This document shows, piece after piece, positions 4,203 to 52,295 of a stretch of DNA of 52,295 nt. This DNA is from a virus. The position numbers and the translations under genes are program-made. Under the pieces are notes generated by a model. The model was given only the letters and a program-made list of their open reading frames with translations, was not told the DNA's origin and made no database searches. The DNA is taken from the IMG/VR virus record IMGVR_UViG_3300003154_000003, positions 1 to 52,295 of that record. One strand, 5' to 3'. Position 1 is the first letter of the stretch, and the number at the start of each line of letters is the position of its first letter.

Positions 4203-4410
4203 ACCCCATCTGATAGCCGAACGGGTCCGGCGTCGGGTCCGGGTCCAATTCTATAAGGGTGGTGTCGCTGATTGGTATCGGCCTAGTATACGCTTTCATT
4301 CGTTCCAGTTCGTCCGATAACCTTTTTAACTCGCCCATAATTTTTATAAGCTTTTCCTCGATAAAATCAAGTCTATCCCCAACGCTCCGCCTATAAATAA
4401 CCTTATTCAT
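4192..4410 (-). CDS. hypothetical protein, 72 aa
   Basis: Track ORF; short overlaps with both neighbours suggest coupled translation. Confidence 0.45.
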   Translation of the reverse strand: MNKVIYRRSVGDRLDFIEEKLIKIMGELKRLSDELERMKAYTRPIPISDTTLIELDPDPTPDPFGYQMGFED

Positions 4411-4733
4411 CTGTTGCCCCCTTTCATATATTCACATTTGGCCTGATAGACCAAACCAGAAATATAAGCATAAATCATCAATTTTTCAAAAACCGTTGTT
4501 TCTTCATCTTTCAAAAGTTCTTTTATGGCTATGGTAACCGGGCCGCCCCGGATAATAAATTTATCAGCTAACCGCAACGCGTTATTTAAAACGTCGCCGA
4601 AAGCCCGGTCGGGCTGCACCATTCCCCGGATACTTTCAGTGTATCCCAAAGGATTCTTGGATGATGGCCATAAATAATTTGGCATGTCTGGCATTTCTAT
4701 AACCAGTACCTCATTATCTTTTAGCTTCCCCAT
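4407..4733 (-). CDS. hypothetical protein, 108 aa
   Basis: Track ORF on the coding strand. Confidence 0.5.
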   Translation of the reverse strand: MGKLKDNEVLVIEMPDMPNYLWPSSKNPLGYTESIRGMVQPDRAFGDVLNNALRLADKFIIRGGPVTIAIKELLKDEETTVFEKLMIYAYISGLVYQAKCEYMKGGNR

Positions 4734-4765
4734 ATTTAAAACATGGGTACCGGATTATATAAATC

Positions 4766-6821: not shown

Positions 6822-7730
6822 TTATTCCTCCACGTTATCGGTTTCGTCGTCATCATCCTTAACGGTGCAAGCACCGCGGGTTATGTACTCCGCGGCCTTT
6901 GCAGCCCTTCCGGCAGCCCAAACGATAAGCTTCTTATCGTTCTGTAACTTTTCAAGCCACCCAACAATATAAGCGCTGTTTATATCGAAAGTTTCTTCGG
7001 CAATCTCCGCGCCCATCATACCAAGCAGTATAGACGCGCCCATTTCGGCTACAAGTTCTTCGCGGCTGTATGATTCACTTGCGAAAACGTGGTCATCGCC
7101 GTCTATTGCAAAACGGTTTAGACGCTTTGGATGTCCGGTGCTGTGGGTCATTTCGTGAAACATGGCACTATAATATAGTTCCGGCTTTTCGAACTTGTTT
7201 ATTTCCGGCACATTAACCTTGTCCAAAACCTCGCAGTAGTAAGCACCATCATCATAGTGTGTTACTTCCTTAAGTTCCTTAGAGTACAGTTCAACCACAT
7301 TTTCACATTCCTTAATAAGTTCATGCTTAACTGTGCTCTGCTTGCTCTCAATCCCTTCAACCTGCGAGATGTGGAACACATAGTAATATCTAAGCATTGG
7401 AATCCTGACAACTTCCGGGTTTCCATCCTTATCCTTCTTATCGGTCTTCTTTTCAAGCATCTTGAAGTATGTTATAAGGTGTCCGTGCTCTCCCTTCTTA
7501 ACACTTCCTCCGGCCTGCTGTGCCTGCTTGAATGTCATGTATTCGCCACCACCCGGCAGCATGAATAGATTGATACCATGATAAGGCTTTTGTGTAACCC
7601 AATTAACGGGCATACCTTCCGTCCATGTTCTGCGCCACGGTATAACGCCCGTTTCCAAAGCCTTAATCATTCTCTCAGTGACGATTTGGTAAACGTCTAC
7701 CGCCTTGTTGTTGTTGGTCTTTGTTGTCAT
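6822..7730 (-). CDS. ardC: ArdC-like protein: N-terminal ssDNA-binding domain plus C-terminal zincin metalloprotease
   Basis: The N-terminus reads VIPWRRTW...NWVTQKPYHGINLFML, which matches the ArdC/DUF1738 pattern. The C-terminal half contains the HExxH motif FHEMTHSTGH. AGGAGG lies upstream of the ATG. Confidence 0.6.
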   Translation of the reverse strand: MTTKTNNNKAVDVYQIVTERMIKALETGVIPWRRTWTEGMPVNWVTQKPYHGINLFMLPGGGEYMTFKQAQQAGGSVKKGEHGHLITYFKMLEKKTDKKDKDGNPEVVRIPMLRYYYVFHISQVEGIESKQSTVKHELIKECENVVELYSKELKEVTHYDDGAYYCEVLDKVNVPEINKFEKPELYYSAMFHEMTHSTGHPKRLNRFAIDGDDHVFASESYSREELVAEMGASILLGMMGAEIAEETFDINSAYIVGWLEKLQNDKKLIVWAAGRAAKAAEYITRGACTVKDDDDETDNVEE

Positions 7731-14814: not shown

Positions 14815-15448
14815 GCTTATATATTATAGCGCTGCTTTCGCTCGATGTTAGCAATATATCAACTAATGCCCCCGACTCGCTGGCTGTTATTATGCTTCGT
14901 CCGTCCTCATCTTCGGATATACTCATCGGGTTATCATCGATATAAATATCATACTGTGATTCATTAATCGAATATCTAAAGGGTGTTTCAGATACTAGTC
15001 GAACGGTCCACGGGAAAGATGTTAAAAAGCCTATATCCTCTTCCGGTGTGATTTCTTCCAATTTGACTTTATATATCCACCCTTCATGGAATACAAAATC
15101 ATTAACCTGTTCCCGGGCAAATTCATTTAATACGGCTTGCCTCTGTGCTTCCGTGCGCTCTACCCCGGAAACGTGTAAGGTCATTACATCCCAACCCATC
15201 GGTCTAATAACATTAAAATTGCTTCCCGGGGTTTTTGTTTTCGACTGCACATAACTTAATACAGTTCCAAAATTCGTTACATTACATTCAATGCCGTTTA
15301 TTGTTGCTTTCGGTGGGACTGTATATTGACCCTGTAAATTAATTACAAGTGCTGATTGTGGTGTAAATCCCCGGGTAGCAATAAGCATATCCAAAATATC
15401 GGTGTCGGTTTGAATCCCGCCCCCCGCTATAGCCATGTAGTTAATCAT
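14795..15448 (-). CDS. distal tail protein (Dit-like), 217 aa
   Basis: Track ORF immediately after the tape measure gene and overlapping it by 4 nt. The call rests on synteny. Confidence 0.45.
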   Translation of the reverse strand: MINYMAIAGGGIQTDTDILDMLIATRGFTPQSALVINLQGQYTVPPKATINGIECNVTNFGTVLSYVQSKTKTPGSNFNVIRPMGWDVMTLHVSGVERTEAQRQAVLNEFAREQVNDFVFHEGWIYKVKLEEITPEEDIGFLTSFPWTVRLVSETPFRYSINESQYDIYIDDNPMSISEDEDGRSIITASESGALVDILLTSSESSAIIYKRVDRWV

Positions 15449-17673
15449 TGTCTAACACTTCCCGAACTTTTAGCACCAACCGCCGTAATAACTGACTTGC
15501 TAAAATCATAACTAATGCGCTTAACGTCGCCGGAATTGTTTATACTGCCAACGTTTACCGTCTGATTAACCTCAACCTTTCGGGCATCGGATGAATGTTT
15601 CGCGGCAGCACTTGCGTATATTGTGCCTGTATAGCTTGGATTGTATGACCCGGACCGGATTAAATCGCTCTCTAGTTTCATTTCGTCAATTGTCTGCTTC
15701 CGGGCCGTACTGTTTGCAGCTATAGCGGAAGTATTAGAATTGACCGATTCGGTTAACGCGCTGTTAATATCCGCAAGTAAGTTTGTAGCGTTGGCTTGCC
15801 CGGTTGCGTAGCTGGCCCAATTTGCAAGCGACCCGGTGGCACTTTCTGCTAATGATGCTGTTTGTTCTGCTGTCCTCGGTGTTGTTAGATAACTAAAGAA
15901 GCTTGCCGCTTGCTGTCTCGCTTTCGTGAAATCGGCATTAAGTGTTAATGTGGGTATATTTATACCGAATAGAGCGCCCAAACTGCTTACCGCTTTTGAA
16001 ATGCTATCAACCGTATTTAAAACCGTTGATACTATACCAAAGAACCACTTTGTAACGTTTGTATATACCCATTTGGCAACTTCTACAATTTCGTCTAATT
16101 GACGCCATGCTACTATAGCGGCCCCAATAGGTCCAATAAGCAATAAAGTAGTGTCGGATAAACTGTTTATCCAACCCATTAAACTATTAATAGCATCCGG
16201 TACTTTGACCTTTAACCAATCGTATAAATTGCCTAGTATCATAGTTAAATAGCTGACGGTTTCCGAAACTACCCCGTACCGTTTTTCTAATGCATATAGT
16301 ACTAATATGACTGCCGCAATTGCACCCACTATTAAAAGATATGGAGCCAATGCAGCCCACGACGTCCTGGCCCAAATAAGCTGTAACCCGGACAGCGCTT
16401 TTATACCGGTTGCTATCGGGCCTATCATCATTAAGATAGGTCCTATAGCAGCGCCAACGGCCAATAGCGCAACAACTCCTATCTGTATCGGTGCGGGCAA
16501 GTCTGCGAAAGCCTGACCAATTGCAATAATAGCCGGGGCAATCTGTTCTTTAAATATTGGCAGAAGGGTGTCTCTAAGCAACGGGACAACAATGTCTTTA
16601 AGCATAGGAAGAAAAGCATTTCCTATCTCTGTCGTGACGGCTGCGAAACTCGTTTTCATTTCATTAAGGCTTTGCTTTGCCGTTGCTCCCATTCTTTCGT
16701 AAGCTTGAGCGGCCGCGCCCTCTGCGTTGTTCATATCTTCAATAGCTTTTGCAGTTGTGGCCGAATTTTTACCCATTAATTCTGTAACAGCTGCCGCGGC
16801 TTCTGAACTGCTGAAATATGCATTTAAAGACTGTCCGGTTTTTTTGGAATCATCTTCTATAAGTTTCAATGCCTGTTGAAGTGTTCCCCCGCTTGCTATG
16901 AAATTTTTAAATGTTGTGCCTGAAAGTTCTTCGAATTTTTTCCCGGCTTGCTGTGTGGTATCGCCCAACTCTATAAACATTCTTTCTAGTTGTGTAGCGG
17001 CTACGGTTGTCGGGATACCTTGCATAGTTATTGCCGCAAGTGACCCGGCGACGTCTTCAAACCTTACACCCAACGCGGCGGCAACCGGGTTAACTTTATA
17101 AAGGCTTTGTGACATCTCTTCGAATGTTGTAGCACCAAATGCCGCGGCTTTGAACATGACGTCGCTTGCTCTCTGCACGGTTATAACATCTTTACCGTAT
17201 GCGTTGACCACTTGGGATAAACCTTTTACAACTGTATTTAAGTCAACGACTCCGCCTATAGATGCTTGGCTCGCGGTTTCCATAAAAGTAAATACATTGT
17301 CCTGACTAATTCCCGCGCTTAATGCGTCGTATAATGCCGGTGCTATCTCATCTGTAAAAATTCCATATTTGGCAGACAATGCGAGCACATCATCCGACAT
17401 GTCTTTCATGGCCGTGTCTGAAATGCCGGGCAACATCGTAAAAACCCGGCTCATATTATCTTCAAAAGTCACGGCCTGATTTGTCATAAGTCCGAGGGCA
17501 CCCGCCGCGGCAGTAATTGGCACGGTTAAACCCATCGTTAACCCGGTGCCTATGGTGGACGCCTTAGATGAAAAGTTGTCTATTGCTCTCCACTCTTTAT
17601 CTATATCGTCGGATAATGTCGATTTCAAACCGAACATTACAAAAATTTCGCCTAATATTTCCGCGGCTCCCAT
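15445..17673 (-). CDS. tail tape measure protein, 742 aa
   Basis: The TP901-type core pattern is visible (LSAKYGIFTDEIAPALYDALSAGI...ASIGGVVDLNTVVKGLSQVVNAYG). There are central hydrophobic segments and Ala/Ser-rich helices. The gene sits after the chaperone genes. Confidence 0.85.
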   Translation of the reverse strand: MGAAEILGEIFVMFGLKSTLSDDIDKEWRAIDNFSSKASTIGTGLTMGLTVPITAAAGALGLMTNQAVTFEDNMSRVFTMLPGISDTAMKDMSDDVLALSAKYGIFTDEIAPALYDALSAGISQDNVFTFMETASQASIGGVVDLNTVVKGLSQVVNAYGKDVITVQRASDVMFKAAAFGATTFEEMSQSLYKVNPVAAALGVRFEDVAGSLAAITMQGIPTTVAATQLERMFIELGDTTQQAGKKFEELSGTTFKNFIASGGTLQQALKLIEDDSKKTGQSLNAYFSSSEAAAAVTELMGKNSATTAKAIEDMNNAEGAAAQAYERMGATAKQSLNEMKTSFAAVTTEIGNAFLPMLKDIVVPLLRDTLLPIFKEQIAPAIIAIGQAFADLPAPIQIGVVALLAVGAAIGPILMMIGPIATGIKALSGLQLIWARTSWAALAPYLLIVGAIAAVILVLYALEKRYGVVSETVSYLTMILGNLYDWLKVKVPDAINSLMGWINSLSDTTLLLIGPIGAAIVAWRQLDEIVEVAKWVYTNVTKWFFGIVSTVLNTVDSISKAVSSLGALFGINIPTLTLNADFTKARQQAASFFSYLTTPRTAEQTASLAESATGSLANWASYATGQANATNLLADINSALTESVNSNTSAIAANSTARKQTIDEMKLESDLIRSGSYNPSYTGTIYASAAAKHSSDARKVEVNQTVNVGSINNSGDVKRISYDFSKSVITAVGAKSSGSVRQ

Positions 17674-21360: not shown

Positions 21361-23598
21361 TTACCGTCTCCGCGTGTTGTTTCTATATATTATATATGAA
21401 GCGACAATATAAGAAACTACAAAACTGCCGACAACATAACTATCTTTTATATGTGTACCGCCAACGTCTGCAATCCATGTTTGACTATCTGCTGAAATTA
21501 AGGCAGGTATATTATAATCTGTGCCGCCCGTGTTGTTAAATGTATACGTTGCGGCTGTCACACTTGTATTTGTCTGTACTGTGCTGCCGTTGAGTTTCCA
21601 TGTTACGTTCTCGGCACCATCTAAATTAACAGTGAATGTCTGTGCTGTATTAGGTTTTATATACGGTGTGGTATCCACCGGCAAATATGAAATAATCTGA
21701 TTCGGTGAAACTGTTATTATCCATGTCTGACTATCCCCAAATACTGGGGCAGTTATATTATATTCTCCGGCTGCTGTAGCTGGAAAAGTATAATGTCCTT
21801 CTGTGCTTCCGCTATCTGTTTCCGCTAAACTGCTGTCTACATACCAACTTATATCATCGGCTTGGTCTATGGTAACGTTAAATGTTATGGCGTTATCTTC
21901 GGCCACGGCTGGCGTTGTATCAATTGGTGTAAAATCTGTTATAGCGGTATAATTGTATTCCAAAGCAACATCATAATATTTTGAAGTTCCGGTTGTTAAG
22001 TCGCCTATATCTATTACGATATTGTCACCGCTGCGTTCCACGGTTGCGCCCGTCTGGTTTGATACCATCGACGGGTCGAAAAGCCTATCAGTGACGGCAA
22101 GCGGATATGTTAAGGTTGCTGCCGCCAGGTCATGCGTTGGTGTAAACACGAGATTTACTAAATGATGTGTGCTGTTATCGGTTTCCTGAACCTTTGTATA
22201 ATTTGTTACAAAGTAAAGCAATAAAGAAACATCGTGCGACTGCGTGGAGTTACTAACAAATTTAACATTCTGTAAATTCTTTGGAACGGCTACGCTCTGG
22301 TTTGTGCTCGTTAAAGGTGTTTCGGTTCCAGTAGAATTTATTTGAAACTTTGTGCCCGCATATCCTAAAGTAAATTCTCTTATAATGCTTTGGGGCAATA
22401 CGGTATTATACAATATTGTGTAATCTATGGTACTGTTCCAAAACCCGGCTGAACCTGTAGAACCTATATTAAGGTTTGCGGTGGTACCTGTTACAGATGT
22501 ATAAGACGTTGAACTATTAGCGCTTAGTTCTCCATTCTTATAAAATAGTCCCCTGTCTGTGGTGGGTGAAATTGAAACCGCGTAATGTGTCCAATTATAC
22601 ATAGCCGTTTTTGATTCGTTAACGGCTCCATAAGCGTATTTTGTACCGCCTGAATATACATAACCGGCATGTCTTAATGTTGCTGCACCATCGTATTTTA
22701 TACCGTATTGGTTAGCCTTATAAATAAGACGTGTCCCGTCTGCTTCGGGGTATCTGTATATTCCTGCAAGCATTGTTATTTCGTCGGTAATATTTAATGA
22801 CGCCGTTGACGTACGGTTTAATTGGTCATTACCATCAAAACGTAAAGCGCTGTTTGCATTACCGAAACGGTCATTTACTGGCGTTGCTGTAGTGGCACCG
22901 AGATTATTAGCGTTTGTGCTTATATCGTTATTATTTCCCTCAAACGGCCATGCGGCAACAACATTTGACTGTCTAGGATATGTTGAGATGTTGGACTCGT
23001 CCCAAACTTGATATGTCTGTACATTCGGAAAAATTATATACATGGCTGTTGCATTTGGCACCCCGACGGTTATAGTCATATCGGCAACGTTTCCGTTAAC
23101 CGTTTTATATAGATAACCAACGGCTCCGCCTATAACAACTTCAGAAAAATTTGAAACTATTTCTATATCGCCGTTTTTATCCATAACGTCGGCCGTATTA
23201 TAAATAAGTGCGGTGTCTACAACGCCTTCGTTATTTATATGCACATAGCTAAATTGTTTGCCGTTGTAGTCCTTAAGTTTCTTAAGTGTGTTCTCGTTAA
23301 ATTTCAACTTTGCTTTTTTGTCGGATTTTTCTTTATCTGAAATTAATAGCTTTCCGTCTATATCTGAAACTTTATAATTATTAGCGTTACTATTTTTAGT
23401 AGTTATTTGAATTTCCCCTGAAAATTTAGCGGGGCAATCTATCACTGTTTTATAACTGCCGCCGGTTTGGTCATCAGATGTTTTTTTATCATCGCCCGCG
23501 GCTACGGCTGACGCTGCACAACTTACTAAGAAAATACATGCAATAAATAATATTCCCAATTGTTTTATTTTGGGAATTAAGCTTGTAAACATCTTCAT
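21361..23598 (-). CDS. secreted, lipobox-bearing LamG/ConA-like lectin-fold protein with two Ig-like repeats and a C-terminal TM anchor, 745 aa
   Basis: The N-terminus KQLGILFIACIFLVSCAAS is a signal peptide with an L-V-S-C lipobox. NSALRFDGNDQL...ITMLAGIY fits the LamG_3 pattern. Two C-terminal repeats of about 65 aa follow (F.V......W..[DN][GS]...Y.F...G.Y.I...W). The protein ends VVGSFVVSYIVASYIIYRNNTRRR. There are more than 20 N-x-S/T sequons. Confidence 0.6.
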   Translation of the reverse strand: MKMFTSLIPKIKQLGILFIACIFLVSCAASAVAAGDDKKTSDDQTGGSYKTVIDCPAKFSGEIQITTKNSNANNYKVSDIDGKLLISDKEKSDKKAKLKFNENTLKKLKDYNGKQFSYVHINNEGVVDTALIYNTADVMDKNGDIEIVSNFSEVVIGGAVGYLYKTVNGNVADMTITVGVPNATAMYIIFPNVQTYQVWDESNISTYPRQSNVVAAWPFEGNNNDISTNANNLGATTATPVNDRFGNANSALRFDGNDQLNRTSTASLNITDEITMLAGIYRYPEADGTRLIYKANQYGIKYDGAATLRHAGYVYSGGTKYAYGAVNESKTAMYNWTHYAVSISPTTDRGLFYKNGELSANSSTSYTSVTGTTANLNIGSTGSAGFWNSTIDYTILYNTVLPQSIIREFTLGYAGTKFQINSTGTETPLTSTNQSVAVPKNLQNVKFVSNSTQSHDVSLLLYFVTNYTKVQETDNSTHHLVNLVFTPTHDLAAATLTYPLAVTDRLFDPSMVSNQTGATVERSGDNIVIDIGDLTTGTSKYYDVALEYNYTAITDFTPIDTTPAVAEDNAITFNVTIDQADDISWYVDSSLAETDSGSTEGHYTFPATAAGEYNITAPVFGDSQTWIITVSPNQIISYLPVDTTPYIKPNTAQTFTVNLDGAENVTWKLNGSTVQTNTSVTAATYTFNNTGGTDYNIPALISADSQTWIADVGGTHIKDSYVVGSFVVSYIVASYIIYRNNTRRR

Positions 23599-27893: not shown

Positions 27894-29369
27894 TTATTTA
27901 GTAACTATTAGTTTATAAGGCTTTCCGTATTCCACATCTGTATCGTATACCGCGCCAACATCACACATTTTTAAAACTTCGAATTGATTAATATTAGCTT
28001 GTTCGGCGGTATCTATAACCATTTCAAGCGGCACATATCTATGTTCCGCGCCTTCGCCCACCAACCGGCTAACATTTCGCTGCATGACTTTTTCTAATGG
28101 TAGATTGGTAGCCCTCAATTCAACTTCATAACCTAATGACCTATATTTATTTATGATTTTTTCGGCTTTGTCCTGCCGCTTCAATGTCCCGTCTATTATT
28201 ACGTTGCTACGTTCTTTTTGTATCCGGGCCTCTATTTGGTCTAATACGTCGCTGGCCTCATCGTGGAATAATGCGGCATTCGGGCCAGTATATCCCGGCA
28301 ACATGTGTTTTATATCATCGTTGTTTATATAGTTAAAACTATCAAAATCATTTACATATTTCTTAAGCCCGCCTTTACCTGACCCGGACGGACCCCCGAA
28401 CAATATAACCCGGGGTTTATTTCCCGTGGCGGGCTTCCCGGCAAATGTTTCTATTATTTCATTATGAACCATTTGCCGCTCTTCCGTGTATACCCCGTTA
28501 ACTTGATTCAAAAATTTAGATGTTCGGCCTAATCTAACCTGTTCATCTGTTAAAATTATTTCGTTCATAATAGCCGGATGCTTGCTTATTTCAAGTTGCG
28601 TTTTTATAAGTAGTTGCCGCTTTTCGGCATCCGGGGTTATCTTGGTATATTTCGCGGGTATGCTCTCCGGCAAGTTGACCGGTGGAATATCTGCCGGTTC
28701 GGTGGGTATATTAACCGGCGGCATGTCTCCCGGCTTTGGAATTACCGGTATATAAGTACATCTGCAATTAGGTTCACCCAATGGTGGGGCGTTGTCTATA
28801 CTATACGTTTTGCCGTTTCGGTCGCGGTGTAGCTGCCTAGTTTTTGCATCTCCTACCGCTAACCATTTTAACTCTTTTACCCCATGCTTTTTAAAACGTG
28901 TTTCGGCTCCTTCCCACTGAATGCGTTTTACTTCCGTGCGGGCAACCATTGAAGCATGAGAGCGGCGAGCATTAAAATAATCGTGAAGTTCCGACGCAAT
29001 GGAATCTTTCGGATATCCCCCCCGTTTATATTCCTTAACTCCCGTCGGCTTTCCCTCTTTTACCCCCCGGGCTATTATGTCGGCTACGGTCTTCCGCTGT
29101 TCTTCGGACGATTCTTTAAACCACGGCTTAAATATTTTTTTGTCCATGTTTGGGCCGCCGACTACCCACGTACCCCCCTTTGTAATCAAATCTTTTTTAT
29201 ATTGTTTAGAATATGCTAATGCTTCTTTCTGTACCTGCCTAACATTGATAGATGCTTTTAATAGATTGCTCGCGTCCATGTCACCGGATGCGTGAGATTT
29301 TGCCGCGCCTCTGGCTAATATCTGCGAAAATGCAATGTCAAAAATATTAAAAGCACCATCGAACGGCAT
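27894..29369 (-). CDS. MuF / SPP1 gp7-family minor head protein fused to a zeta-toxin-like P-loop kinase domain, 491 aa
   Basis: The MuF core reads ARTEVKRIQWEG...WLAVGDAKTRQLHRDRNGKTYSID...GEPNCRCTYIPV. A Pro-rich linker follows with repeated PPVN[IL]P. The C-terminal domain reads YTEERQMVHNEII...RVILFGGPSGSGKGG...NVIIDGTL...GYEVELRATNLPLEKVMQRNVSR, which fits the zeta / AAA_33 pattern. Confidence 0.7.
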   Translation of the reverse strand: MPFDGAFNIFDIAFSQILARGAAKSHASGDMDASNLLKASINVRQVQKEALAYSKQYKKDLITKGGTWVVGGPNMDKKIFKPWFKESSEEQRKTVADIIARGVKEGKPTGVKEYKRGGYPKDSIASELHDYFNARRSHASMVARTEVKRIQWEGAETRFKKHGVKELKWLAVGDAKTRQLHRDRNGKTYSIDNAPPLGEPNCRCTYIPVIPKPGDMPPVNIPTEPADIPPVNLPESIPAKYTKITPDAEKRQLLIKTQLEISKHPAIMNEIILTDEQVRLGRTSKFLNQVNGVYTEERQMVHNEIIETFAGKPATGNKPRVILFGGPSGSGKGGLKKYVNDFDSFNYINNDDIKHMLPGYTGPNAALFHDEASDVLDQIEARIQKERSNVIIDGTLKRQDKAEKIINKYRSLGYEVELRATNLPLEKVMQRNVSRLVGEGAEHRYVPLEMVIDTAEQANINQFEVLKMCDVGAVYDTDVEYGKPYKLIVTK

Positions 29370-32683: not shown

Positions 32684-33202
32684 TTATGTTGTCCTTGATT
32701 TGGTAACGGCTGACCCGCTATCCTGTAAGGTATGTGTTGAAATTATTGTCGCGTCGTCGTCCTCATAGGTTGTTATAGCGGTTTCGGATACGGTTTGTTT
32801 GTTTAATAGTATTGCGTGAATCTCCCGTATTTTCTGGCCGACGGTTGCGTCGGTGTTATGTACGGCGCTGCTTAGTACTTCATCTAATAAAACATCTTCG
32901 GCTGGCGTCACTATATCGACCGTCCGGGTTTCGGGGTCTATACCGGTACCCGTTACAGTTATACACAGTTCCCCGGCAGATGCAACCATAGCCGCGATAC
33001 TTACTAACATTTTATAGACGCCGGGCATGTGGGACGAACTAACCTCTACAAGTGATACCGCGGCCTCTGTTGCGCTGCCGCCGTTGATACTATACCAGAC
33101 GCTTAAACCTGATATTGTCCCGGTCATTCTGCTAATGTGGTCTACACTTTGGGTAATAACCCAATATATATATTTTCCTGTGTCGCCTACGTCTATCCTC
33201 AT
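32684..33202 (-). CDS. hypothetical protein, 172 aa
   Basis: Track ORF; GGCGGGGGA lies upstream of the ATG. Confidence 0.5.
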   Translation of the reverse strand: MRIDVGDTGKYIYWVITQSVDHISRMTGTISGLSVWYSINGGSATEAAVSLVEVSSSHMPGVYKMLVSIAAMVASAGELCITVTGTGIDPETRTVDIVTPAEDVLLDEVLSSAVHNTDATVGQKIREIHAILLNKQTVSETAITTYEDDDATIISTHTLQDSGSAVTKSRTT

Positions 33203-33372: not shown

Positions 33373-35043
33373 TTAAAATTCCCCCATTACCCACGTTGGA
33401 GCGCTGCTGTAAGTAATGTTTATGACACTTCCCGGGGCAAGGGTAAACCGGCCAGATGTTAGCCCGGTTGTTAACAGCGTGCCGCCAGACTTCGAAACTT
33501 TTATAGCGGAAACCGTGCCGCCGTATATGAACACATCTAAATTTACATGGAAAGTGTTTGTCCAACTTGTGCCGCTGCTTGGCACGGCTGGCGCTGTCAC
33601 GTTTCCAACCGGGTTATATCCATAACAATTAGATATTTCGCTATTGGTTCCCACCAACAAAGCCGCGGCGGTCACATATGATTTTATAAGGCACCCATCA
33701 AATTTATTATAATCCGACGTACCACTTTCTAAAATACCGTAACTGTGCCCCGTTATCATTCTAACCGCGCTTGCTGTGTTCTCGTTTGCATTAACGCAAT
33801 CAATCCCCGCGCCGGTGTTGTTATAACATTCCCCATCTACAAACCCGTTTCGATTTGCGGAAGTTAAAACTATTGCATCCCCGGCAATATCTCTTATCAT
33901 AAAGGTGCTGAAACTATTTCCATGACACCCGCTATCTATCTTTATGCCCTGTGGGGTTGTTGTTATCGGTCCACCGTATATAAACAAATTGTTAAAGTTG
34001 TTTCGGCTGCTGGTTGTCTGCATTAATATTGCTGGTCCTTTCGTATAACGTAAATCAAGATTTGAAAATACATTTTCTGCACATGTTGTTAAGCTTATTC
34101 CCGGGCTGGTTGCTGTTCCGTTGCTCGGGTCCTGCGTGGTTATTATATTGCATCCAACATTAAACCGGCTGTTGTATCCTAAAATGCATTCATTCCATAC
34201 GTTCGAACCCATTATATTACTTATCCGATTTCCGCCTATGTAATAAAGATTTAAAACCGGCCCGTGAATATCAACGGCTGTGATGTTACTTATTATATTA
34301 TTTGAGGTAGTAACCGAGGACCCGGCCCGGACCCGGACACCTGCCGTATTAAAGCCATAACTTGCGCTAAACTGGCTGTACAAATATACCTTATTAATAT
34401 GTAAATTTGTTAATGATGTTGAGCTTATAGTATCTATACCGGTGTCGATTCCGTAACGACATACTATATTATTCATATATAAGTCTGCGCCGTTAATTTG
34501 AATACCGGTATATAGCCATTCAGTAGTAACATTTTCCACTACACCCCCCGCACCCGTTTTAATACCTATTATTGTATTGGTTGCGGCATGTGATGCAAGG
34601 GTTAATGTTACATTGCGCACCGTAAAATATGACGCGGCCGATGCATCTATGCCTATTGTACATGCGTCTATAGTCATCACGGCCCCGTGAAAATCTATAT
34701 CCCCATAACTAACGGCCGTTAAATTTGAACCTAATGCAGCATTGCCGCCTATGTAATGTATGGTTGTATATGGGTGTGCGGCTAATGCCGTTTCTAATGC
34801 GGTTGCTACATCTGCATAGTCATCCACATCATACGTACATAAATTATCGTCGCCCACCGTAATTATTCCATATGTAGCAAAAAGCTGTTCGGGCGTTTTG
34901 CTCCGCCATTTATCAACGTCCGAGCCGCCGCCGCTTCCAGAATGTGCGGCATATATCCCCGCTTCCATCCGGTTAAGTTGTGCGGCGGTTATAGGTGTTG
35001 CCGTGCTCGGGTAATCTTCCCATGTTTCCGGTACAAATACCAT
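33373..35043 (-). CDS. tail fibre / depolymerase with a right-handed beta-helix, 556 aa
   Basis: The N-terminal WEDYPSTATPITAAQLNRMEAGI is a motif common at phage fibre N-termini. Repeated N-[IV]-x-x-x-N-[IV] beta-helix rungs follow (NNIISNITAV, NRISNIMGSN, NNFNNLFIYGG). No signal peptide. Confidence 0.6.
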   Translation of the reverse strand: MVFVPETWEDYPSTATPITAAQLNRMEAGIYAAHSGSGGGSDVDKWRSKTPEQLFATYGIITVGDDNLCTYDVDDYADVATALETALAAHPYTTIHYIGGNAALGSNLTAVSYGDIDFHGAVMTIDACTIGIDASAASYFTVRNVTLTLASHAATNTIIGIKTGAGGVVENVTTEWLYTGIQINGADLYMNNIVCRYGIDTGIDTISSTSLTNLHINKVYLYSQFSASYGFNTAGVRVRAGSSVTTSNNIISNITAVDIHGPVLNLYYIGGNRISNIMGSNVWNECILGYNSRFNVGCNIITTQDPSNGTATSPGISLTTCAENVFSNLDLRYTKGPAILMQTTSSRNNFNNLFIYGGPITTTPQGIKIDSGCHGNSFSTFMIRDIAGDAIVLTSANRNGFVDGECYNNTGAGIDCVNANENTASAVRMITGHSYGILESGTSDYNKFDGCLIKSYVTAAALLVGTNSEISNCYGYNPVGNVTAPAVPSSGTSWTNTFHVNLDVFIYGGTVSAIKVSKSGGTLLTTGLTSGRFTLAPGSVINITYSSAPTWVMGEF

Positions 35044-35061
35044 TTTATTTATCCCCCTGTC

Positions 35062-38000
35062 TTAAGATACATCTGCGTACAATGAAAACCTTTCAGATTC
35101 CGCGCCGTACAAACCACACCACGCCCACAGCGTCACGTTTTCGCCGGGTGCCAGTGCAGTATTAACCGCCTGTGGAGTAGAACTTAGTTTAATGCTATCT
35201 GCCCCCTTTATCGGGTCATTGTCTACCCATATATCTATCGTGGCGGGTGTGTCCCGGTCAAGATATAAATACGGTGTTCCGCTACTTCCCCCGGTGTTGG
35301 TTATTTTCAATGTCGGCTGTGTGCTGTTTTGTGCATAGTTCGGCACCAAGTTAGCCCACCAAAACGCATCAAAGTATAAATAATCCAATGCGTCCCCTGT
35401 ATACCACATTTCGCCGTCCCAATATTGGAACCCATCAATAGGTGGTATTGTGAACCCGAAATTATAATACTTCGATTCTCCGGCGGACTGTGGGCCGGTT
35501 GTAATGGTTATTACTCCATCGTTCTTAACATATTCTGCATTGGTGTTATTTGTACTGAATGAGTTTACAGCGACGCCGTTAAACCGTCTGTCGGCAAGGG
35601 TATATATAATAGTTCCGTTCGTGCTGTCTAATAGCACATCTTGAACCATTGAAACATTTAATTGCCCGCTTGCCCTTGTTTCCTCGGTGGTTAAATCGGT
35701 GTCGTTGAACGTCATCAAAGCGGATACGTCGAACGTAGATAAATTATATGCCGAAAATACCAATTGTGTAAGGTTTCCCATACCATGTGGTAAGCTTACC
35801 GGGTTGTCTGCTACGCTGTCCCACTGATTAGACCACGCACCCAAACCATAGAACCTTATATATTTGTTCACAGTGTCGGTTATGGTAACATTACCACTTA
35901 CCAGATAAGCACCTGTATAAGTTTGTGACAATGTAAAGGGCGTTGTATAATTCATATCGTTAGCGGTTTCGGTATAATATCCACTGTATCCGGTTTTTGG
36001 TACTTCGTAATAATCCGGTTCGCCGTCTTCCCCGTCTTCCAGTACTTCAACCGACCATTCATAACTATCTGATTCCGCGCCTTCAATGACATATAGCATT
36101 ATGGTATAGTACCCGGATGGCATACCTGTACCCCATGTGTATGAGTCACTGGTTGCACCTATTGCCGTATTTCCTGCAATGCCGTTATAATACCAATAGT
36201 AATTAGCTGCTTTATTGGTGCTCGCGCTGAATGTTCTTGTACTATTGTGCGGCAAGGTTGTACTAGCTGCCGGGCTGGTTTCGATAATGTTCAATGTTTC
36301 CGGTTCATATATGGTAATTTCCCACTCCACAAAATCGTCGTCGGTTTCCGCTCTAACCGTATATGTGCCGTTTGTTGTTGAAACGAAATCATATCCGGCT
36401 GCGTATCCCGGGGCGGCTGTTGTGTCGGTTTCCCTTAAGTTTCCGTCAACCTTCCACACAACGGATGTATTCGTATTTGTGGTAACATTAAAAGCTTTTA
36501 TGGTGTTCTTCGGCCAGCTAAATGATGCTGTACCGGGTGCATAGCTTTCTATTGTCTTCGGATTTGGTGCGGTTGCATATATGCTCAATTTCGGGGCTCT
36601 TGATGCATTACCGTTTTCTGAACTGTAGAAAGCTATATAATTATCGTGCTCGTTTCCAGCTTTCAGGAAAAATCCCTTGTTATACTGCGGATACGTTGCA
36701 AAAGATTGTACCAAGTCGGTTACATCTATCGATATATACCCATTTATGGGTATGTCTTCCGCGTTTATGGTATAATTACCGAATGGATACCCCGGCGGTT
36801 CGCTGGTTGGATTTACATAATTTAAGGTGTTTTGATAATCTCCGCCCGGATACGTCCACGCTGCCCCGGTTAATCTACTGTTCCAAGTTACCTGTGATTG
36901 TGTCCACGATTCGGCAGGAACAACTTTATATACTTTTATATCAGTGTCGTTGTTCCTTGTAACCCCGGCCGGATAATACCACCACAAATCAAGGGTAGCA
37001 TATCCAATATCCTCCGGGTCATAGCTGGTTAAATTGAAATACAGCAAATCCCTATAAACTGCACCGGTTGACGCAATTTGTCCCAAGTCTAAATAAGTGC
37101 CCGTTCCGAAATTACTATCGGGTGTAGTTGATTTTATACGTGAATCGGCAACTGTAACCGGTGCTTCCGGCGGGGTTTCGTTGCCAACCGTTACGGATGC
37201 ATAATAATATGTTGAACCTTCTGCATTGGTCAGTGTTAATGTGTAGGTTGTGCTTGCGGTTGGATATACCGCAACGGCTCCGCCGGATACCGGGGTAACG
37301 GCACCCACGCCGGAAATTGAAGCGCTTACCGCGTTGGTACTCGTCCAAATTAAATTAGACGATTCCCCGGCGGTTATACTGGTCGGGTTTGCCGTAAACG
37401 TTCCATACGGATACACGGCCCCACTGGCAGACTTTGACGCTTCGGCGGTGTTACCATACCGGCCGATATTTGCACGCGCACCGTTTGGCTGTGGCTCGAG
37501 ACTATAGGGCATTGTAGCCTTGCCGGTATCTATGCATATACTGTTAACCGTGTCGGCTGTCCATGTGCTCCCTGTCCACCGGCCCGCCGTGCTCTTAAGA
37601 TGATAATCCCGGGACCCATAGGCGCCCGTCATAAGATAAACCGCGGGGTCGCCGTGAATGTTATTAGTCATTGTAAACCCGCCGGACCCGCTGGCGCTGT
37701 ACGTATCCCCTACGTTATTATAGAAACAATTATTCTCTACAACAAAATGATTTCTTGGGAATATGTTAGCAATACCATACCCGGAATTAGTATAACCGGT
37801 TGGAGTTAGGGCGGTATTCATTATAATATTATTTCTAACGTAAGTTGTGTAACTGACCCCGCTTGCCGGTCGGATGTCTCTTTCTTCCCACGCTATAGCC
37901 TGTTGCCCGCAGTCATCGAAAACATTGTGCTCGATACGTGTATTTTGGAAATTCATTATTGAGATACCACTATTTGAATAACCATTATCTGAGTAGTGAC

Positions 38001-38985
38001 CCGTATAAGTAAAGGTGTTGTGGTGTATATAAACACCTTCGCCGTGTACGGTTGTGTCCGATGTGCCCCCGCTCGCGTGTGATAACCAAATACCGGAAGC
38101 GTAACCGTTATAAAATTTATTATTATTGACTTCAATGTCATTAAAATACGGACTTGTTGCGCTGCTTCCTATCTGCACGAGCGGGCCGCTATACGCCCCG
38201 CCGATACTGCTATAAAAAACATTGTTTCTTACATCGGCGTGCTGTATACCATCTGACAGCCTAACACATGAATTTGTACGGCTCTTAAGCACGTTATTTT
38301 CAACAAGTACATATTCGGCCGTCAGGAAATAAAAACATTCGTGCCCCAATTCCCACGCTGTATTATTTGTAATAGTGATATGGTCCGATGTTCTTATATT
38401 CATTCCGTCAATGTCACCGTACTGCATGTGTGTATTATCTATAGTCAGATATGACACATCATTAAACTGTACTAAAATATTCCCGCTGTCGCCTAAAGAG
38501 GTGTCTTGTGGGTGTCCACCGTCTAGGGTTATGTTCCTAATTGCTATATGGTTAGCACCGTTAACAGCATCAATCAAATTTAACCCGGTCGTGGACCGTG
38601 CGGCACTTGTAAATGTTATTACGGCGTCCTCGTCGCCGCTTAGAGTTATACCAGTGTTTGGCCCCACTATTTCAGATGGAACATAATAAGTATGCGGTCC
38701 TTTAAGATATACCGTAGTATACCCGCTCGCTTTGTTGTTATAAGCATAAGCAAGGGCATTAGTAATCATTGTGTGGTCCGTGCTGCTTGATAGCGTGCCC
38801 GTACATGTGTAAGTTGTGCCCCCGGCCGTATCTCCGGCATTGCCTGTATAACCAACGTACAAAACGGGCGGGGCTGCGGCGCCTGACCCGGCGGGGTGTA
38901 ATACTAATACGCTTATCGCAAGCAGTAGCAAAACACCATAAAATAGTTTACTAAAAGTATCAATCGGACCGGTCTTAAAATTCAT
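35062..38985 (-). CDS. secreted multidomain beta-helix glycanase-like protein (disaggregatase-like) with a DNRLRE-type segment and Ig-like repeats, 1307 aa
   Basis: The N-terminal signal or anchor reads FYGVLLLLAISVLVLHPAGSGAAA. PbH1-type rungs are present (ITITNNTAWE, VLVENNVLKS, VRNNVFYSS, IHHNTFTY, IEHNVFDD, VVENNCFYNN). The segment ADSRIKSTTPDSNFGTGTYLDLG...LLYFNL...VTWNSR resembles the DNRLRE domain. Two repeats of about 65 aa belong to the same type as those in 21361-23598. Confidence 0.6.
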   Translation of the reverse strand: MNFKTGPIDTFSKLFYGVLLLLAISVLVLHPAGSGAAAPPVLYVGYTGNAGDTAGGTTYTCTGTLSSSTDHTMITNALAYAYNNKASGYTTVYLKGPHTYYVPSEIVGPNTGITLSGDEDAVITFTSAARSTTGLNLIDAVNGANHIAIRNITLDGGHPQDTSLGDSGNILVQFNDVSYLTIDNTHMQYGDIDGMNIRTSDHITITNNTAWELGHECFYFLTAEYVLVENNVLKSRTNSCVRLSDGIQHADVRNNVFYSSIGGAYSGPLVQIGSSATSPYFNDIEVNNNKFYNGYASGIWLSHASGGTSDTTVHGEGVYIHHNTFTYTGHYSDNGYSNSGISIMNFQNTRIEHNVFDDCGQQAIAWEERDIRPASGVSYTTYVRNNIIMNTALTPTGYTNSGYGIANIFPRNHFVVENNCFYNNVGDTYSASGSGGFTMTNNIHGDPAVYLMTGAYGSRDYHLKSTAGRWTGSTWTADTVNSICIDTGKATMPYSLEPQPNGARANIGRYGNTAEASKSASGAVYPYGTFTANPTSITAGESSNLIWTSTNAVSASISGVGAVTPVSGGAVAVYPTASTTYTLTLTNAEGSTYYYASVTVGNETPPEAPVTVADSRIKSTTPDSNFGTGTYLDLGQIASTGAVYRDLLYFNLTSYDPEDIGYATLDLWWYYPAGVTRNNDTDIKVYKVVPAESWTQSQVTWNSRLTGAAWTYPGGDYQNTLNYVNPTSEPPGYPFGNYTINAEDIPINGYISIDVTDLVQSFATYPQYNKGFFLKAGNEHDNYIAFYSSENGNASRAPKLSIYATAPNPKTIESYAPGTASFSWPKNTIKAFNVTTNTNTSVVWKVDGNLRETDTTAAPGYAAGYDFVSTTNGTYTVRAETDDDFVEWEITIYEPETLNIIETSPAASTTLPHNSTRTFSASTNKAANYYWYYNGIAGNTAIGATSDSYTWGTGMPSGYYTIMLYVIEGAESDSYEWSVEVLEDGEDGEPDYYEVPKTGYSGYYTETANDMNYTTPFTLSQTYTGAYLVSGNVTITDTVNKYIRFYGLGAWSNQWDSVADNPVSLPHGMGNLTQLVFSAYNLSTFDVSALMTFNDTDLTTEETRASGQLNVSMVQDVLLDSTNGTIIYTLADRRFNGVAVNSFSTNNTNAEYVKNDGVITITTGPQSAGESKYYNFGFTIPPIDGFQYWDGEMWYTGDALDYLYFDAFWWANLVPNYAQNSTQPTLKITNTGGSSGTPYLYLDRDTPATIDIWVDNDPIKGADSIKLSSTPQAVNTALAPGENVTLWAWCGLYGAESERFSLYADVS

Positions 38986-39043
38986 GGTATCACTCTATAA
39001 AAATAATAGTGATACATCTATAAATAATTTTCTACGCAGTATC

Positions 39044-40031: not shown

Positions 40032-40310
40032 TCACATATATGCAATGTAACTAAACAAGGCAATGATTACAACTGACAAAACGGCAATAACAATAGTCAT
40101 AATACTTATTAGCTTATTGACTTCATAACAGCGCACACGAAAGCCCAAATCTTCGCCGCCACAATGCACCCGGCGTATATCCCAATCGGTCGTAAGGTGT
40201 TTACATATCGGGCACACCGGGTATTTTATACCCATTGGTCTATAATTACATGCTGCGGGCTCGTCATGCCACGTTTTAATTCTAACGTCTGTACTCGGGT
40301 CTAAATCCAT
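40032..40310 (-). CDS. Zn-ribbon protein with a C-terminal TM helix, 92 aa
   Basis: Track ORF 40032-40385, trimmed to the ATG at 40310 (MDLDPS), which is preceded by GGTGGGG. It contains CPICKH...HCGG and a tail IMTIVIAVLSVVIIALFSYIAY. Confidence 0.45.
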   Translation of the reverse strand: MDLDPSTDVRIKTWHDEPAACNYRPMGIKYPVCPICKHLTTDWDIRRVHCGGEDLGFRVRCYEVNKLISIMTIVIAVLSVVIIALFSYIAYM

Positions 40311-40443
40311 ATTATCCCCACCTTCATTACTGCTATTATTATTTTTCCGATTTCCGCCACGATTCCCCCGGTCAAGTAAGCACATACCGCAACCAGTATA
40401 AACAATATTATATTCCCGATTGCCTCATAATCTCTATCGTTCA

Positions 40444-51308: not shown

Positions 51309-52295
51309 CTATTCATGCAGATTCAGCCACGCTTTATAAAAGCCCTCACAATTTTCTATAAGTGTGGTGGTCCTTACACTTGGCAACTCAATACTAATTA
51401 TAGATTCAACGTGATATAGCGACTCGTTGAAATTATAGTCCTTCTGACCCTTAAATAGTTCCGTAAGGGCTACGGGGTCCTTCATACCGGCATTGTAATA
51501 CTCGCGCACACAGTATATACGCAGGTTGTGCCCTTCCTCGCCCTCTAGCTGTTGGGTTAAAGCCCATTCAAAGAACGGCCGAACCTTTCCCGCTCTTACC
51601 TTCATATTCTCCGGCATGTCTACGGCCTCGCTGGCCTCTGCTGCTGGCTCTTTAAATTCAATTCCGCTTATATCGACTATGCCAATTTCCAACTCTGTAA
51701 AATCCTCGCACCATTCACCGTTTATTAAAATTGCTGATTTGTTTCCGGTCTTTCTGTGAGTAGCAAAAGGCAACTTGACAAGATTACCGTATCCTTTTTT
51801 ATCGGCAATCATCTGTTTAGGGTAAACTTCACATTTAACTTTAGCAGTTTTGATAATATGTTTACCGAATAATTTGGCCTGTTTTGCGGCTACCGGTTGC
51901 AATAATATCCAAATATGATATGAAAACGGCGAACCGGACCATTCGAGGATAAAGGGTATGCTTAACGATTTTAGCAAGTTACCAATTTTATTAACATTCT
52001 CGTCTGATTGCTGACATTTTAAATTATATTGACTGTCCGAATCCTCGGGCTTTCTATGAGCATCTATGTCAAAGCATACCCATTTTACCATGTTCCCGGG
52101 TCCTAATGTGTAGGCGCCAACTGTTATTTCACCGGATAAATGACGCTGCAATAGTTCTTCGTCAACTTTACCATTTTCTTTATAGTAACTTCCGCTAGAA
52201 ATTTGTAAAGCGTAAGCGTCCTCCCGTGCTATAAGTAACTGTAAAAAGTTACATCTATTATATATTTTCGAAGAAATAATATTATTTTTCCCTAT
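51309..52295 (-). CDS. archaeo-eukaryotic primase-polymerase (AEP/PrimPol) domain; 3-prime part of the wrap-around helicase-primpol ORF
   Basis: The track lists 51309-52151 from a TTG, but the frame stays open upstream to the window end. AEP motifs read: HLSGEITVGAYTL...WVCFDIDAH (motif I DxD), SGSPFSYHIWILL (motif II), EVYPKQ...GYGNLVKLPFATHRKTGNKS (motif III). Confidence 0.8.
   Translation of the reverse strand: MGKNNIISSKIYNRCNFLQLLIAREDAYALQISSGSYYKENGKVDEELLQRHLSGEITVGAYTLGPGNMVKWVCFDIDAHRKPEDSDSQYNLKCQQSDENVNKIGNLLKSLSIPFILEWSGSPFSYHIWILLQPVAAKQAKLFGKHIIKTAKVKCEVYPKQMIADKKGYGNLVKLPFATHRKTGNKSAILINGEWCEDFTELEIGIVDISGIEFKEPAAEASEAVDMPENMKVRAGKVRPFFEWALTQQLEGEEGHNLRIYCVREYYNAGMKDPVALTELFKGQKDYNFNESLYHVESIISIELPSVRTTTLIENCEGFYKAWLNLHE
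52260..52295. promoter_or_regulatory. Left part of the 80-bp concentric palindromic element L1
   Basis: atatattttcgaaga (52260-52274) is the exact reverse complement of 54-68. The stretch 52261-52277 is identical to the left arm of L2 (10658-10674). Confidence 0.6.
52274..52295. repeat. Terminal direct repeat, identical to 1-22
   Basis: Exact 22-nt match to the window start. Confidence 0.9.

Follow-up and report, generated by a model that had tools for sequence, protein, structure and literature searches.

Why should a tailed virus encode, upstream of its DNA-packaging genes and outside its tail module, a very large protein that begins like an exported protein and carries the catalytic region of an archaeal surface enzyme? 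This question is raised by positions 33,373 to 38,985 of the IMG/VR virus record IMGVR_UViG_3300003154_000003 (positions 1 to 52,295; this whole stretch of 52,295 nucleotides (nt) is called the window here), which represents the nearly complete genome of a tailed virus resembling siphoviruses. An earlier note, made from the sequence alone, had described here two genes for beta-helix proteins of 1307 and 556 amino acids (aa), and had proposed that the larger one is a secreted depolymerase and the smaller one a depolymerase fibre of the virion. Both open reading frames (ORFs) are present with these sizes on the minus strand. The interpretation that we favor, with a probability of about 0.5, is that the 1307-aa protein is an exported depolymerase of the disaggregatase family that possesses a polyuronate-binding module and serves release and spread, while the 556-aa protein is a virion tailspike or fibre and a 172-aa protein encoded beside it is an adaptor or assembly partner. 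The features of this gene block are as follows.

38986-39032, minus strand: putative archaeal promoter of the 1307-aa gene, with a purine-rich stretch resembling a B recognition element (BRE) and two TATA-like boxes (ATTTATAGA, TTTTATAGA)
35062-38985, minus strand: 1307-aa ORF, following the early gene block
38875-38985, minus strand: residues 1-37 of the 1307-aa protein, predicted Sec-type signal peptide or N-terminal signal anchor (K4/K13, core 14-30, small-residue stretch PAGSGAAA)
37426-38874, minus strand: residues 38-520, right-handed beta-helix catalytic region of the disaggregatase family (Beta_helix and Disaggr_assoc)
37192-37413, minus strand: residues ~525-598, extra Ig-like domain missing from the orthologue P0002 (alignment gap at 524-596; weak GldM_3rd match at 550-591)
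36580-37149, minus strand: residues 613-802, DNRLRE/Disaggr_repeat domain, CBM96-like, putative binding module for acidic polysaccharides
36031-36570, minus strand: residues 806-985, two Ig/Fn3-like beta-sandwich repeats, common to the 745-aa surface protein (AlphaFold2 (AF2) predicted local distance difference test (pLDDT) 80-94)
35446-35943, minus strand: residues ~1015-1180, beta-rich middle domain after an acidic disordered linker at 985-1015 (AF2 low to medium confidence)
35065-35442, minus strand: residues 1182-1307, all-beta C-terminal module (FxYWDG...QPTLKITNNG...VDNDN...NVTLWAW; AF2 pLDDT 78-94)
33373-35043, minus strand: 556-aa tailspike- or fibre-like protein, beginning 18 nt past the 1307-aa ORF (attachment motif 1-45, beta-helix ~94-470, C-terminal beta-sandwich 475-556 with GYNPVG...GGTV...TGL.SG)
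32684-33202, minus strand: 172-aa ORF, between the fibre gene and terS

The N-terminal part of the large protein is matched by several family profiles with scores well above their cut-offs. The Pfam profile Beta_helix covers residues 109-257 (1.2e-13, 51.5 bits versus a cut-off of 25.9), in agreement with the beta-helix described before, and Disaggr_assoc (PF08480) follows at residues 282-488 (2.2e-40, 139.1 bits versus 22.6, profile positions 2-194 of 194). The segment that had been described as DNRLRE-like is matched by Disaggr_repeat (PF06848) at residues 614-802 (2.3e-45, 154.9 bits versus 33.9, profile positions 1-179 of 179) and by the NCBIfam profile DNRLRE (NF033679) at residues 613-802 (1.2e-34, 119.7 bits versus 34, profile positions 1-163 of 164). 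The name-giving motif itself is degenerate and reads DSRIKS in the window protein and DARIKS in P0002 as compared to DNRLRE in the cellular repeats, but the remaining domain is well conserved. The assignment to the disaggregatase-related family, which had been suspected before, is thus strongly supported: a beta-helix is combined here with a DNRLRE domain and a predicted signal for export at the N-terminus.

The homologues that rank directly after the viral copies are archaeal surface proteins, and not bacterial tailspikes; they share about 36-42% identity with the window protein across its first 500-800 residues. Those with a species name are almost all from Methanomethylovorans and are annotated as "disaggregatase related repeat-containing" or "DNRLRE domain-containing", and the PGF-pre-PGF proteins of Methanosarcina rank lower. 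When 58 cellular homologues are compared, 70 alignment columns are at least 90% conserved, and 60 of these are kept in the viral protein, including all conserved charged residues (D193, H215, R236, R242, E285, H321, H322, E352, D357, R384 and D486). The ten changed core columns are mostly conservative hydrophobic swaps, such as I to V or L to F, and none of them removes a conserved charged residue. As the core and its charged residues are conserved and the export signal stands in the register described below, the catalytic domain appears to be a functional enzyme that forms part of an exported protein.

The N-terminus of the large protein (MNFKTGPIDTFSKLFYGVLLLLAISVLVLHPAGSGAAAPP) contains its single hydrophobic segment (residues 11-29, mean Kyte-Doolittle value 2.3), in agreement with the hydrophobic signal or anchor that had been recognized there. 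A simple signal-peptide rule is passed by two of the 67 minus-strand ORFs of the window, which encode the 1307-aa protein and a 745-aa surface protein. In all 58 cellular homologues that align over the catalytic region, the N-terminus is formed by a signal peptide, by a lipobox (LAGC) or by a signal anchor, and these export signals directly precede the conserved VYVG..G.Y.C.G..D with which the mature domain begins. In the viral protein, the hydrophobic segment stands in the identical register, and a hydrophobic N-terminus is also retained in the orthologue P0002. This register and the signal-peptide rule support the earlier description of the protein as secreted, and we infer that it is exported and non-cytoplasmic. 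N-glycosylation sequons were also considered as evidence of export and rejected for this protein, as their enrichment is restricted to the 745-aa protein and to the wider family of proteins that share the C-terminal module.

With respect to the substrate, more distant relationships are of interest. The family profile of the catalytic region matches the A-modules of the mannuronan C5-epimerases AlgE6 (5LW3, 2.2e-10) and AlgE4 (2PYG, 1.1e-8) over about 330 residues. A direct phmmer search of the PDB with the 1307- and 556-aa proteins gave nothing useful, and the matches came from the family profiles only. Despite the significant fold-level homology, the protein was not assigned as an epimerase, since it lacks the catalytic motif of AlgE; the acid equivalent to AlgE D178 is kept, as E216 in the viral protein and as D in its homologues. 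The best PDB match of the DNRLRE profile is an alginate lyase chain (7VBO) with a marginal E value of 0.03, and PF24517 (CBM96) is precomputed for the orthologue P0002 but does not appear in the Pfam scan of the window protein. The structurally characterised founder of CBM96, the alginate-binding TM6-N4, is reported to be about 30% identical to DNRLRE domains (PMC9971899). The disaggregatase of M. mazei is an extracellular enzyme that degrades methanochondroitin, a polymer of N-acetylgalactosamine (GalNAc) and uronic acid, and disperses cell aggregates (PMC12369344); it is the sole member of the family with a known activity. Because of the AlgE profile match, the relation between DNRLRE and CBM96, and the action of the M. 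mazei disaggregatase on methanochondroitin, a uronic-acid-containing polymer of the matrix or envelope would be the most economical guess for the substrate.

The C-terminal half of the protein is of a different kind. Its AF2 model (pLDDT 72.8) comprises two confident Ig-like domains, a disordered linker, a weaker beta domain and a confident terminal module, and for this half Foldseek retrieved generic Ig/Fn3/MG chains only. The Ig-like repeats had been described as the end of the protein and as shared with the 745-aa protein. The sharing is real, as BLASTP aligns residues 809-951 with residues 573-708 of the 745-aa protein (5e-9) and residues 1063-1178 with residues 436-546 (6e-5), but the repeats are internal (about 806-985) and the true end is formed by a module of 125 residues (1182-1307). 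Repeats of the same kind are also present in archaeal PGF-CTERM surface proteins, and the middle domain at about 1015-1180 is conserved in P0002 and P0075. The C-terminal third of the protein is absent from the cellular homologues.

When 1.8 billion representatives were searched exhaustively by HMMER for relatives of residues 806-1307, 35 matches were obtained, of which about 25 end in the C-terminal module. In the resulting alignment (A1), the module of about 125 aa is always located at the extreme C-terminus of otherwise different proteins, whose heads consist of LamG, beta-helix, DUF2341, DNRLRE or CarboxypepD_reg domains. No Pfam family exists for it, a pattern scan found it in none of 185,579 species genomes and, among metagenome contigs, on one contig of 1 kb, and a further homologue search with the module alignment added a single fragment. 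All six contexts that were looked up (the window lineages, L009, L010, L011, L048 and L049) are contigs of tailed viruses, in which the module gene is found in or beside the structural genes, and there is one such ORF per contig, with the module always at the C-terminus of its protein. Textbook signal peptides are present in 19 of 25 module proteins, and four of the other six are N-terminally truncated fragments. Of the remaining two, P0080 proves to possess a signal peptide once its true start is considered, and P0087 is an exception, so that 20 of 21 full-length module proteins possess a signal peptide. The module protein family is 2.1-fold enriched in N-glycosylation sequons. A side observation in this respect is that the disaggregatase-related proteins of Methanomethylovorans (P0003, P0006, P0017 and P0039) are strongly depleted in N-x-S/T sequons, to 0.2-0.36 of expectation, and the contrast to the enriched viral family may reflect different glycosylation regimes or hosts.

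The 745-aa protein, which shares the Ig-like repeats, is encoded between the head and tail genes and appears to be a membrane-anchored surface protein. It begins with a signal peptide that contains a lipobox-like LVSC, continues with a LamG-like middle part and the Ig-like repeats, and ends with a C-terminal hydrophobic anchor followed by RRR; its sequons number 23 as compared to 12.7 expected. A homologue on contig L015 (18652-21015) keeps the signal peptide and the C-terminal hydrophobic anchor with its basic tail. In a more distant homologue, P0077 (26% identity over the N-terminal 346 aa, 2e-7), the anchor is replaced by the C-terminal module, and this swap hints that the module is a device for retention or targeting.

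For the 556-aa protein, a role as a fibre or tailspike of the virion is moderately supported. Its fibre-type N-terminus, which had been noticed before, was recovered by profile searches, in which residues 1-43 match the PHROG families "minor tail protein" and "head fiber protein" at about 2e-6, and its last 100 residues match phrog_31370. The signal-peptide rule detects no signal peptide in it. An identical protein is recorded from a contig of 52.8 kb. The claim of a beta-helix is less strongly supported than for the large protein: Pfam Beta_helix remains below its cut-off (2.5e-4, 21.2 bits versus 25.9), but the orthologue P0072 is annotated with PF13229, the AF2 model shows many short strands in succession and then a sandwich at the C-terminus, and its best Foldseek matches in the PDB are depolymerases of Klebsiella phages and the tailspikes of CBA120, Sf6, HK620 and P22 (E about 1e-4). 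The C-terminal motif is also found in the Pectate_lyase_3 proteins P0073 and P0074. The 172-aa protein matches no Pfam or PHROG family, and it is 59% and 56% identical in two other lineages. A domain formed by its N-terminal 99 residues is found again in two proteins, of 436 aa in L010 (14200-15510) and of 198 aa in L011 (10358-10954), where it is fused to longer C-terminal parts, and on both of these unrelated virus contigs the gene is close to one that carries the C-terminal module. As this domain recurs near module genes, the 172-aa protein may be a partner, possibly an adaptor or assembly partner of the gene block.

The gene block is conserved beyond the window. Closest to the large protein is a relative with 98% identity, which is encoded on a 12-kb contig (L005) with the same gene order. 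A second lineage, found on four contigs and in IMG/VR UViG 3300038673_000301, encodes the full-length orthologue P0002 with 52-59% identity; the other products of this lineage are 48% (fibre-like gene), 59% (172-aa gene), 41% (terS), 68% (terL) and 66% (portal) identical to those of the window. In a third lineage (L007/L016) the same gene block is present. Over these lineages, the orthologues of the 556-aa protein are 62% and 48% identical to it. The three-gene block is thus syntenic in three lineages with 62-68% identical TerL proteins, and it is missing from 31 further IMG/VR loci with TerL proteins of 40-53% identity. A comparison of the large gene in the window with that in L005 shows 195 synonymous and 20 non-synonymous differences, which corresponds to a ratio of non-synonymous to synonymous polymorphism (pN/pS) of 0.03, and the values for the fibre and portal genes are 0.047 and 0.039, respectively. 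The block is under strong purifying selection (pN/pS 0.03-0.05), and as the values of the large gene and the fibre gene are close to that of the portal gene, both are kept under a constraint as strict as that on a core structural gene. In a variant of the second lineage (L002/L004, 5359-6755), an IS200/IS605-type insertion with a Y1 transposase and a TnpB/Cas12f-like gene is located a few kb upstream of the disaggregatase-like gene; the insertion and additional genes of this variant, for RNase H and an MJ1673-like protein, do not occur in L001/L003.

The enzyme family is also found in another group of tailed viruses with a Mu gpT-type capsid. Here, the proteins P0043 and P0037 combine a beta-helix, Disaggr_assoc and LamG with a signal peptide, share 38-41% identity with the catalytic region of the window protein, and are encoded between head and tail genes (L050 10001-12772 and L051 919-3705). 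L050 additionally encodes a disaggregatase-like protein of 519 aa without a signal peptide (3186-4745), between the MuF and scaffold genes. Members of this enzyme family with an export signal, and one or more without it, are hence a recurring trait of these viruses, which fits the idea of one secreted and one particle-borne enzyme as put forward in the earlier note.

All real genes of the window are located on the minus strand, and in the order of transcription the gene block is placed between the early genes and the packaging genes. The features outside the block are the following.

Start of the transcription order, minus strand: early block of small genes, including those for an AEP (archaeo-eukaryotic) primase, a DUF7004 protein, an HNH nuclease and Cys-rich small proteins
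51309-52151, minus strand: AEP-TOTE-type primase, at one end of the window
After the 172-aa ORF, minus strand: terS (phrog_6299, 6e-14), terL (phrog_2, 6e-26), portal gene and MuF-Zeta fusion
Thereafter, minus strand: scaffold-like and capsid-like genes, then the gene for the 745-aa exported protein
21361-23598, minus strand: 745-aa surface protein
15445-17673, minus strand: tape measure gene among the tail genes, downstream of the 745-aa gene
After the tape measure gene, minus strand: distal tail proteins (Dit-like 217 aa, 908 aa, 375 aa), then the ArdC-like gene
6822-7730, minus strand: ArdC-like anti-restriction protein, ArdcN and zincin metallopeptidase domains (phrog_7245, 1e-67)

The tape measure and distal tail genes follow about 16 kb further downstream. 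Because of the order of terS, terL and portal gene and this distance to the tail genes, the genes for the 1307- and 556-aa proteins precede the packaging genes and do not belong to the tail module, exactly as had been stated before. Two side observations concern other genes of the window. The minor head protein (27894-29369, minus strand) is a fusion of Phage_Mu_F (residues 119-206) with a C-terminal Zeta-toxin/AAA_33 kinase (residues 315-461, 1.5e-22) and resembles a MuF-type polymorphic toxin in the capsid of a presumed archaeal virus; for its L001 orthologue of 575 aa, the precomputed Pfam list shows MuF alone. About 1 kb upstream of the large gene, a 117-aa protein (40032-40385, minus strand) with a zinc-ribbon-like CxxC...C and a single C-terminal transmembrane helix (tail-anchored) is encoded, which has no family hit, is the sole small membrane protein near the block and might speculatively be regarded as a holin-like candidate.

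Just upstream of the start codon of the 1307-aa gene, a perfect 8-bp inverted repeat, GTATCACT-N13-AGTGATAC (38987-39015), overlaps the proximal TATA-like box; it occurs only once in the window and is a possible operator for a regulator of late genes. Both TATA-like boxes and the CAC/GTG half-sites are kept upstream of the L001 orthologue, even though the proteins are only 52-59% identical. With this conserved BRE/TATA-like pair, it is plausible that the 1307-aa gene heads a late operon, and the upstream elements would fit an archaeal promoter with a regulatory site in front of the morphogenesis genes.

The host is probably a methanogen of the Methanosarcinaceae, with Methanomethylovorans as the best guess, which is based on one protein with about 40% identity. 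The clue to the host that had been seen in the disaggregatase-like architecture is borne out insofar as the homologues are archaeal surface proteins, but the nearest named ones are from Methanomethylovorans and not from Methanosarcina. A scan of species genomes with TerL matched only bacterial metagenome-assembled genomes (MAGs), at 40% identity, and TerL therefore provides no host signal. No relative of the genome was found among 50,697 deposited records of phages and archaeal viruses, by a DNA search or by tblastn with the large protein. The window contains no detectable tRNA, and no integrase or other lysogeny marker is present among its larger ORFs.

From these observations, the following course of events can be proposed. 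The 1307-aa enzyme would be produced late, alongside the virion proteins, and would be carried across the membrane by its N-terminal Sec signal, which could be cleaved or serve as an anchor. Outside, the beta-helix of the disaggregatase family would cut or modify a uronic-acid-containing polysaccharide of envelope or matrix, for example methanochondroitin, while the CBM96-like DNRLRE domain would keep the enzyme on the acidic polymer, and the Ig-like spacers and the C-terminal module might retain or target it at the cell surface. The matrix around the infected cell and its neighbors would thereby be loosened, so that progeny could leave the aggregates and reach interior cells. It fits to this picture that cells inside aggregates of M. 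mazei are resistant to MetSV (PMC12369344), the one virus that has been studied well. The 556-aa tailspike or fibre would do the corresponding job on the virion at entry, with the 172-aa protein as its putative adaptor or assembly partner.

Several observations weigh against this proposal. The sequons of the 1307-aa protein are not enriched (21 observed and 21 expected), and its N-terminus may be an uncleaved anchor, as the cleavage site is only moderately canonical and is worse in P0002, where a Pro follows the small residues. At the place of the AlgE catalytic motif YG(F/I)DPH(D/E), which is not conserved, the viral protein has DGMNIR (D193-G-x-x-x-R198), and the chemistry could be that of a hydrolase, a lyase or an epimerase. 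The model of the 556-aa protein is modest (pLDDT 62.7, TM (template modelling) score up to 0.38). In L007, the large gene is broken within the DNRLRE domain by one in-frame TAA (1123-1125), which is either a pseudogene mutation or a sequencing error, and the gene may thus be dispensable; a read-through by pyrrolysine was rejected, as the stop codon is TAA and not TAG. The host assignment is tentative, as no provirus, tRNA or spacer link was found and TerL has the mentioned relatives in bacterial MAGs, and methanochondroitin as the substrate would presuppose its production by Methanomethylovorans. Finally, because the C-terminal module is found only on virus contigs, once per contig, with every relative that was looked up in or next to virion genes, it resembles a virion-docking domain.

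The last point leads to the main alternative explanation, in which the 1307-aa protein is itself a virion component, either a depolymerase receptor-binding protein or an appendage of head or neck. The module would then dock on the particle, possibly via a protein of the 172-aa type, the N-terminal parts would be exchangeable, and the hydrophobic segment would either not be used for export or the protein would be added outside the cell. The finding of the module on tailed-virus contigs only and its absence from the species genomes in the pattern scan, its single gene per contig within or beside structural genes, and the swapping of passenger domains (LamG, beta-helix, DUF2341, DNRLRE) as in receptor-binding proteins would all be expected in that case, as would the co-occurrence of the 172-aa N-domain with a module gene in three lineages and the direct vicinity of the fibre-like 556-aa gene. 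However, tailed virions assemble in the cytoplasm, which is difficult to reconcile with Sec signal peptides in nearly all full-length module proteins and with the enrichment of sequons in this family. Moreover, known tailspikes bind to the virion via their conserved N-terminal and not their C-terminal part, the genome already provides a fibre without signal peptide (556 aa) and a normal distal-tail set (Dit-like 217-aa, 908-aa and 375-aa proteins), and the nonsense-interrupted copy in L007 speaks against an essential receptor-binding protein. We therefore consider such a place in the particle unlikely, although it accounts for the distribution of the module.

If the large protein is exported, it could also act together with the 745-aa protein in remodeling the cell surface during infection or lysogeny, which would protect the virus rather than serve its release, by destroying or masking the receptor, by superinfection exclusion, or by preventing the loss of progeny on debris, in analogy to the Llp and Cor lipoproteins of T5 or to receptor-destroying enzymes. 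That two exported or anchored surface proteins share domains, that the 745-aa type is C-terminally anchored in the membrane in two lineages, and that P0077 has the module instead of the anchor, suggesting a surface-retention device, would agree with this, and phage lipoproteins for receptor masking and superinfection exclusion are also encoded within structural modules. Yet the larger ORFs include no integrase or other marker of lysogeny, and a catalytically conserved enzyme of 1300 aa with a carbohydrate-binding module exceeds what is needed to mask a receptor. As the destruction of receptor or matrix also helps the spread of progeny, this explanation overlaps with that of a release depolymerase and differs from it mainly in timing and beneficiary; as an explanation of its own, we regard it as distinctly unlikely. 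Very unlikely, in our view, is that the gene is a recently captured host gene for a surface protein (a moron) without a dedicated role in infection, or that it encodes a non-catalytic adhesin by which particles or cells stick to the biofilm matrix. The N-terminal 800 residues do have the architecture of Methanomethylovorans surface proteins with about 40% identity, archaeal surface proteins contain Ig-like repeats of a similar kind, and the L007 copy is interrupted, but this identity is too low for a recent capture. The level of selection (pN/pS 0.03, on par with the portal gene) and the synteny in three lineages with 62-68% identical TerL make a passenger or adhesin role unlikely; the residues of the catalytic core are retained, the C-terminal third is missing from the cellular homologues, and independent virus groups possess the same enzyme family.

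If the preferred interpretation as an exported depolymerase is correct, this has consequences beyond the single genome. Methanosarcinaceae are shielded in aggregates that are glued together by polysaccharide, and a virus-borne homologue of the dispersal enzyme of the host would be a direct counter-measure. The 1307-aa protein would be the first candidate for an envelope-acting enzyme of a tailed virus of the Methanosarcinaceae group, and the C-terminal module, together with the recurring signal-peptide proteins in structural modules, provides a concrete, searchable marker. Enzymes of this type could possibly be used for dispersing methanogen granules in digesters and for genetics on aggregated strains. 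Beyond that, it can be speculated that Sec-exported module proteins, one per genome in the virion gene modules and with interchangeable glycan-degrading or glycan-binding heads, form an undescribed class, and in the boldest form that they are the missing system for envelope breaching and egress of tailed viruses of S-layer- or matrix-clad methanogens, or that they arm particles extracellularly via the module; we think that this far-reaching version is quite improbable.

A search of a literature library found no published description of a virus-encoded disaggregatase, and the sole paper in it that joins disaggregatase, virus and Methanosarcina is a review on the Methanosarcina cell surface. Among known systems, the disaggregatase of M. 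mazei and the disaggregatase-related surface proteins of Methanosarcinaceae (PF08480, PF06848, NF033679) are the closest, as they share the beta-helix with Disaggr_assoc, the DNRLRE domain, the position of the export signal and the core residues with the 1307-aa protein at about 36-42% identity. In contrast to them, the 1307-aa protein is encoded by a tailed virus beside packaging genes, has a single DNRLRE copy with a degenerate motif (DSRIKS) instead of one to five tandem PKD and DNRLRE units, lacks a PGF-CTERM or lipobox, and possesses a C-terminal extension of about 500 aa that ends in the module found only on virus contigs. The mannuronan epimerase modules of AlgE4 and AlgE6 and the CBM96 domains act on or bind polyuronates, which is like the function proposed here, but this homology is distant and falls short of family membership.

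Right-handed beta-helix proteins that act on glycans and allow a virus to pass a polysaccharide layer are well represented by phage tailspikes and free depolymerases of capsule and extracellular polysaccharide (P22, HK620, Sf6, the CBA120 tailspike proteins, Klebsiella phages). The 556-aa protein is alike in its fibre-type N-terminus and in the best matches of its model, with a weak structural match (TM score up to 0.38). Some infecting phages also set a depolymerase free in soluble form, and the 1307-aa protein is proposed to follow this logic. That protein differs from tailspikes and free depolymerases in its predicted Sec-type export, instead of a release by lysis or an incorporation into the particle, and in its catalytic domain, which belongs to the archaeal disaggregatase family.

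Secretory endolysins reach their substrate via the Sec system of the host before lysis. Like signal-arrest-release (SAR) endolysins and PeiW and PeiP, they are virus-encoded enzymes that degrade the envelope, as is proposed for the 1307-aa protein. It is unrelated to them in sequence, much larger and multidomain, and its presumed target is the outer polysaccharide matrix and not the osmotic wall; in further contrast to the secretory endolysins, no small multi-transmembrane holin-like protein is encoded adjacent to it. The pseudomurein endoisopeptidases PeiW and PeiP are the sole envelope-degrading enzymes described for methanogen viruses, and apart from pseudomurein endoisopeptidases it was regarded as unknown in a review of 2024 how archaeal tailed viruses penetrate the envelope and egress (PMC10791045). 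Viral depolymerases and secretory lysins as such are well known; new in the protein described here is the combination of a catalytic domain of the archaeal disaggregatase type, a predicted Sec-type signal, a CBM96-like module and an undescribed C-terminal module that is found only on virus contigs.

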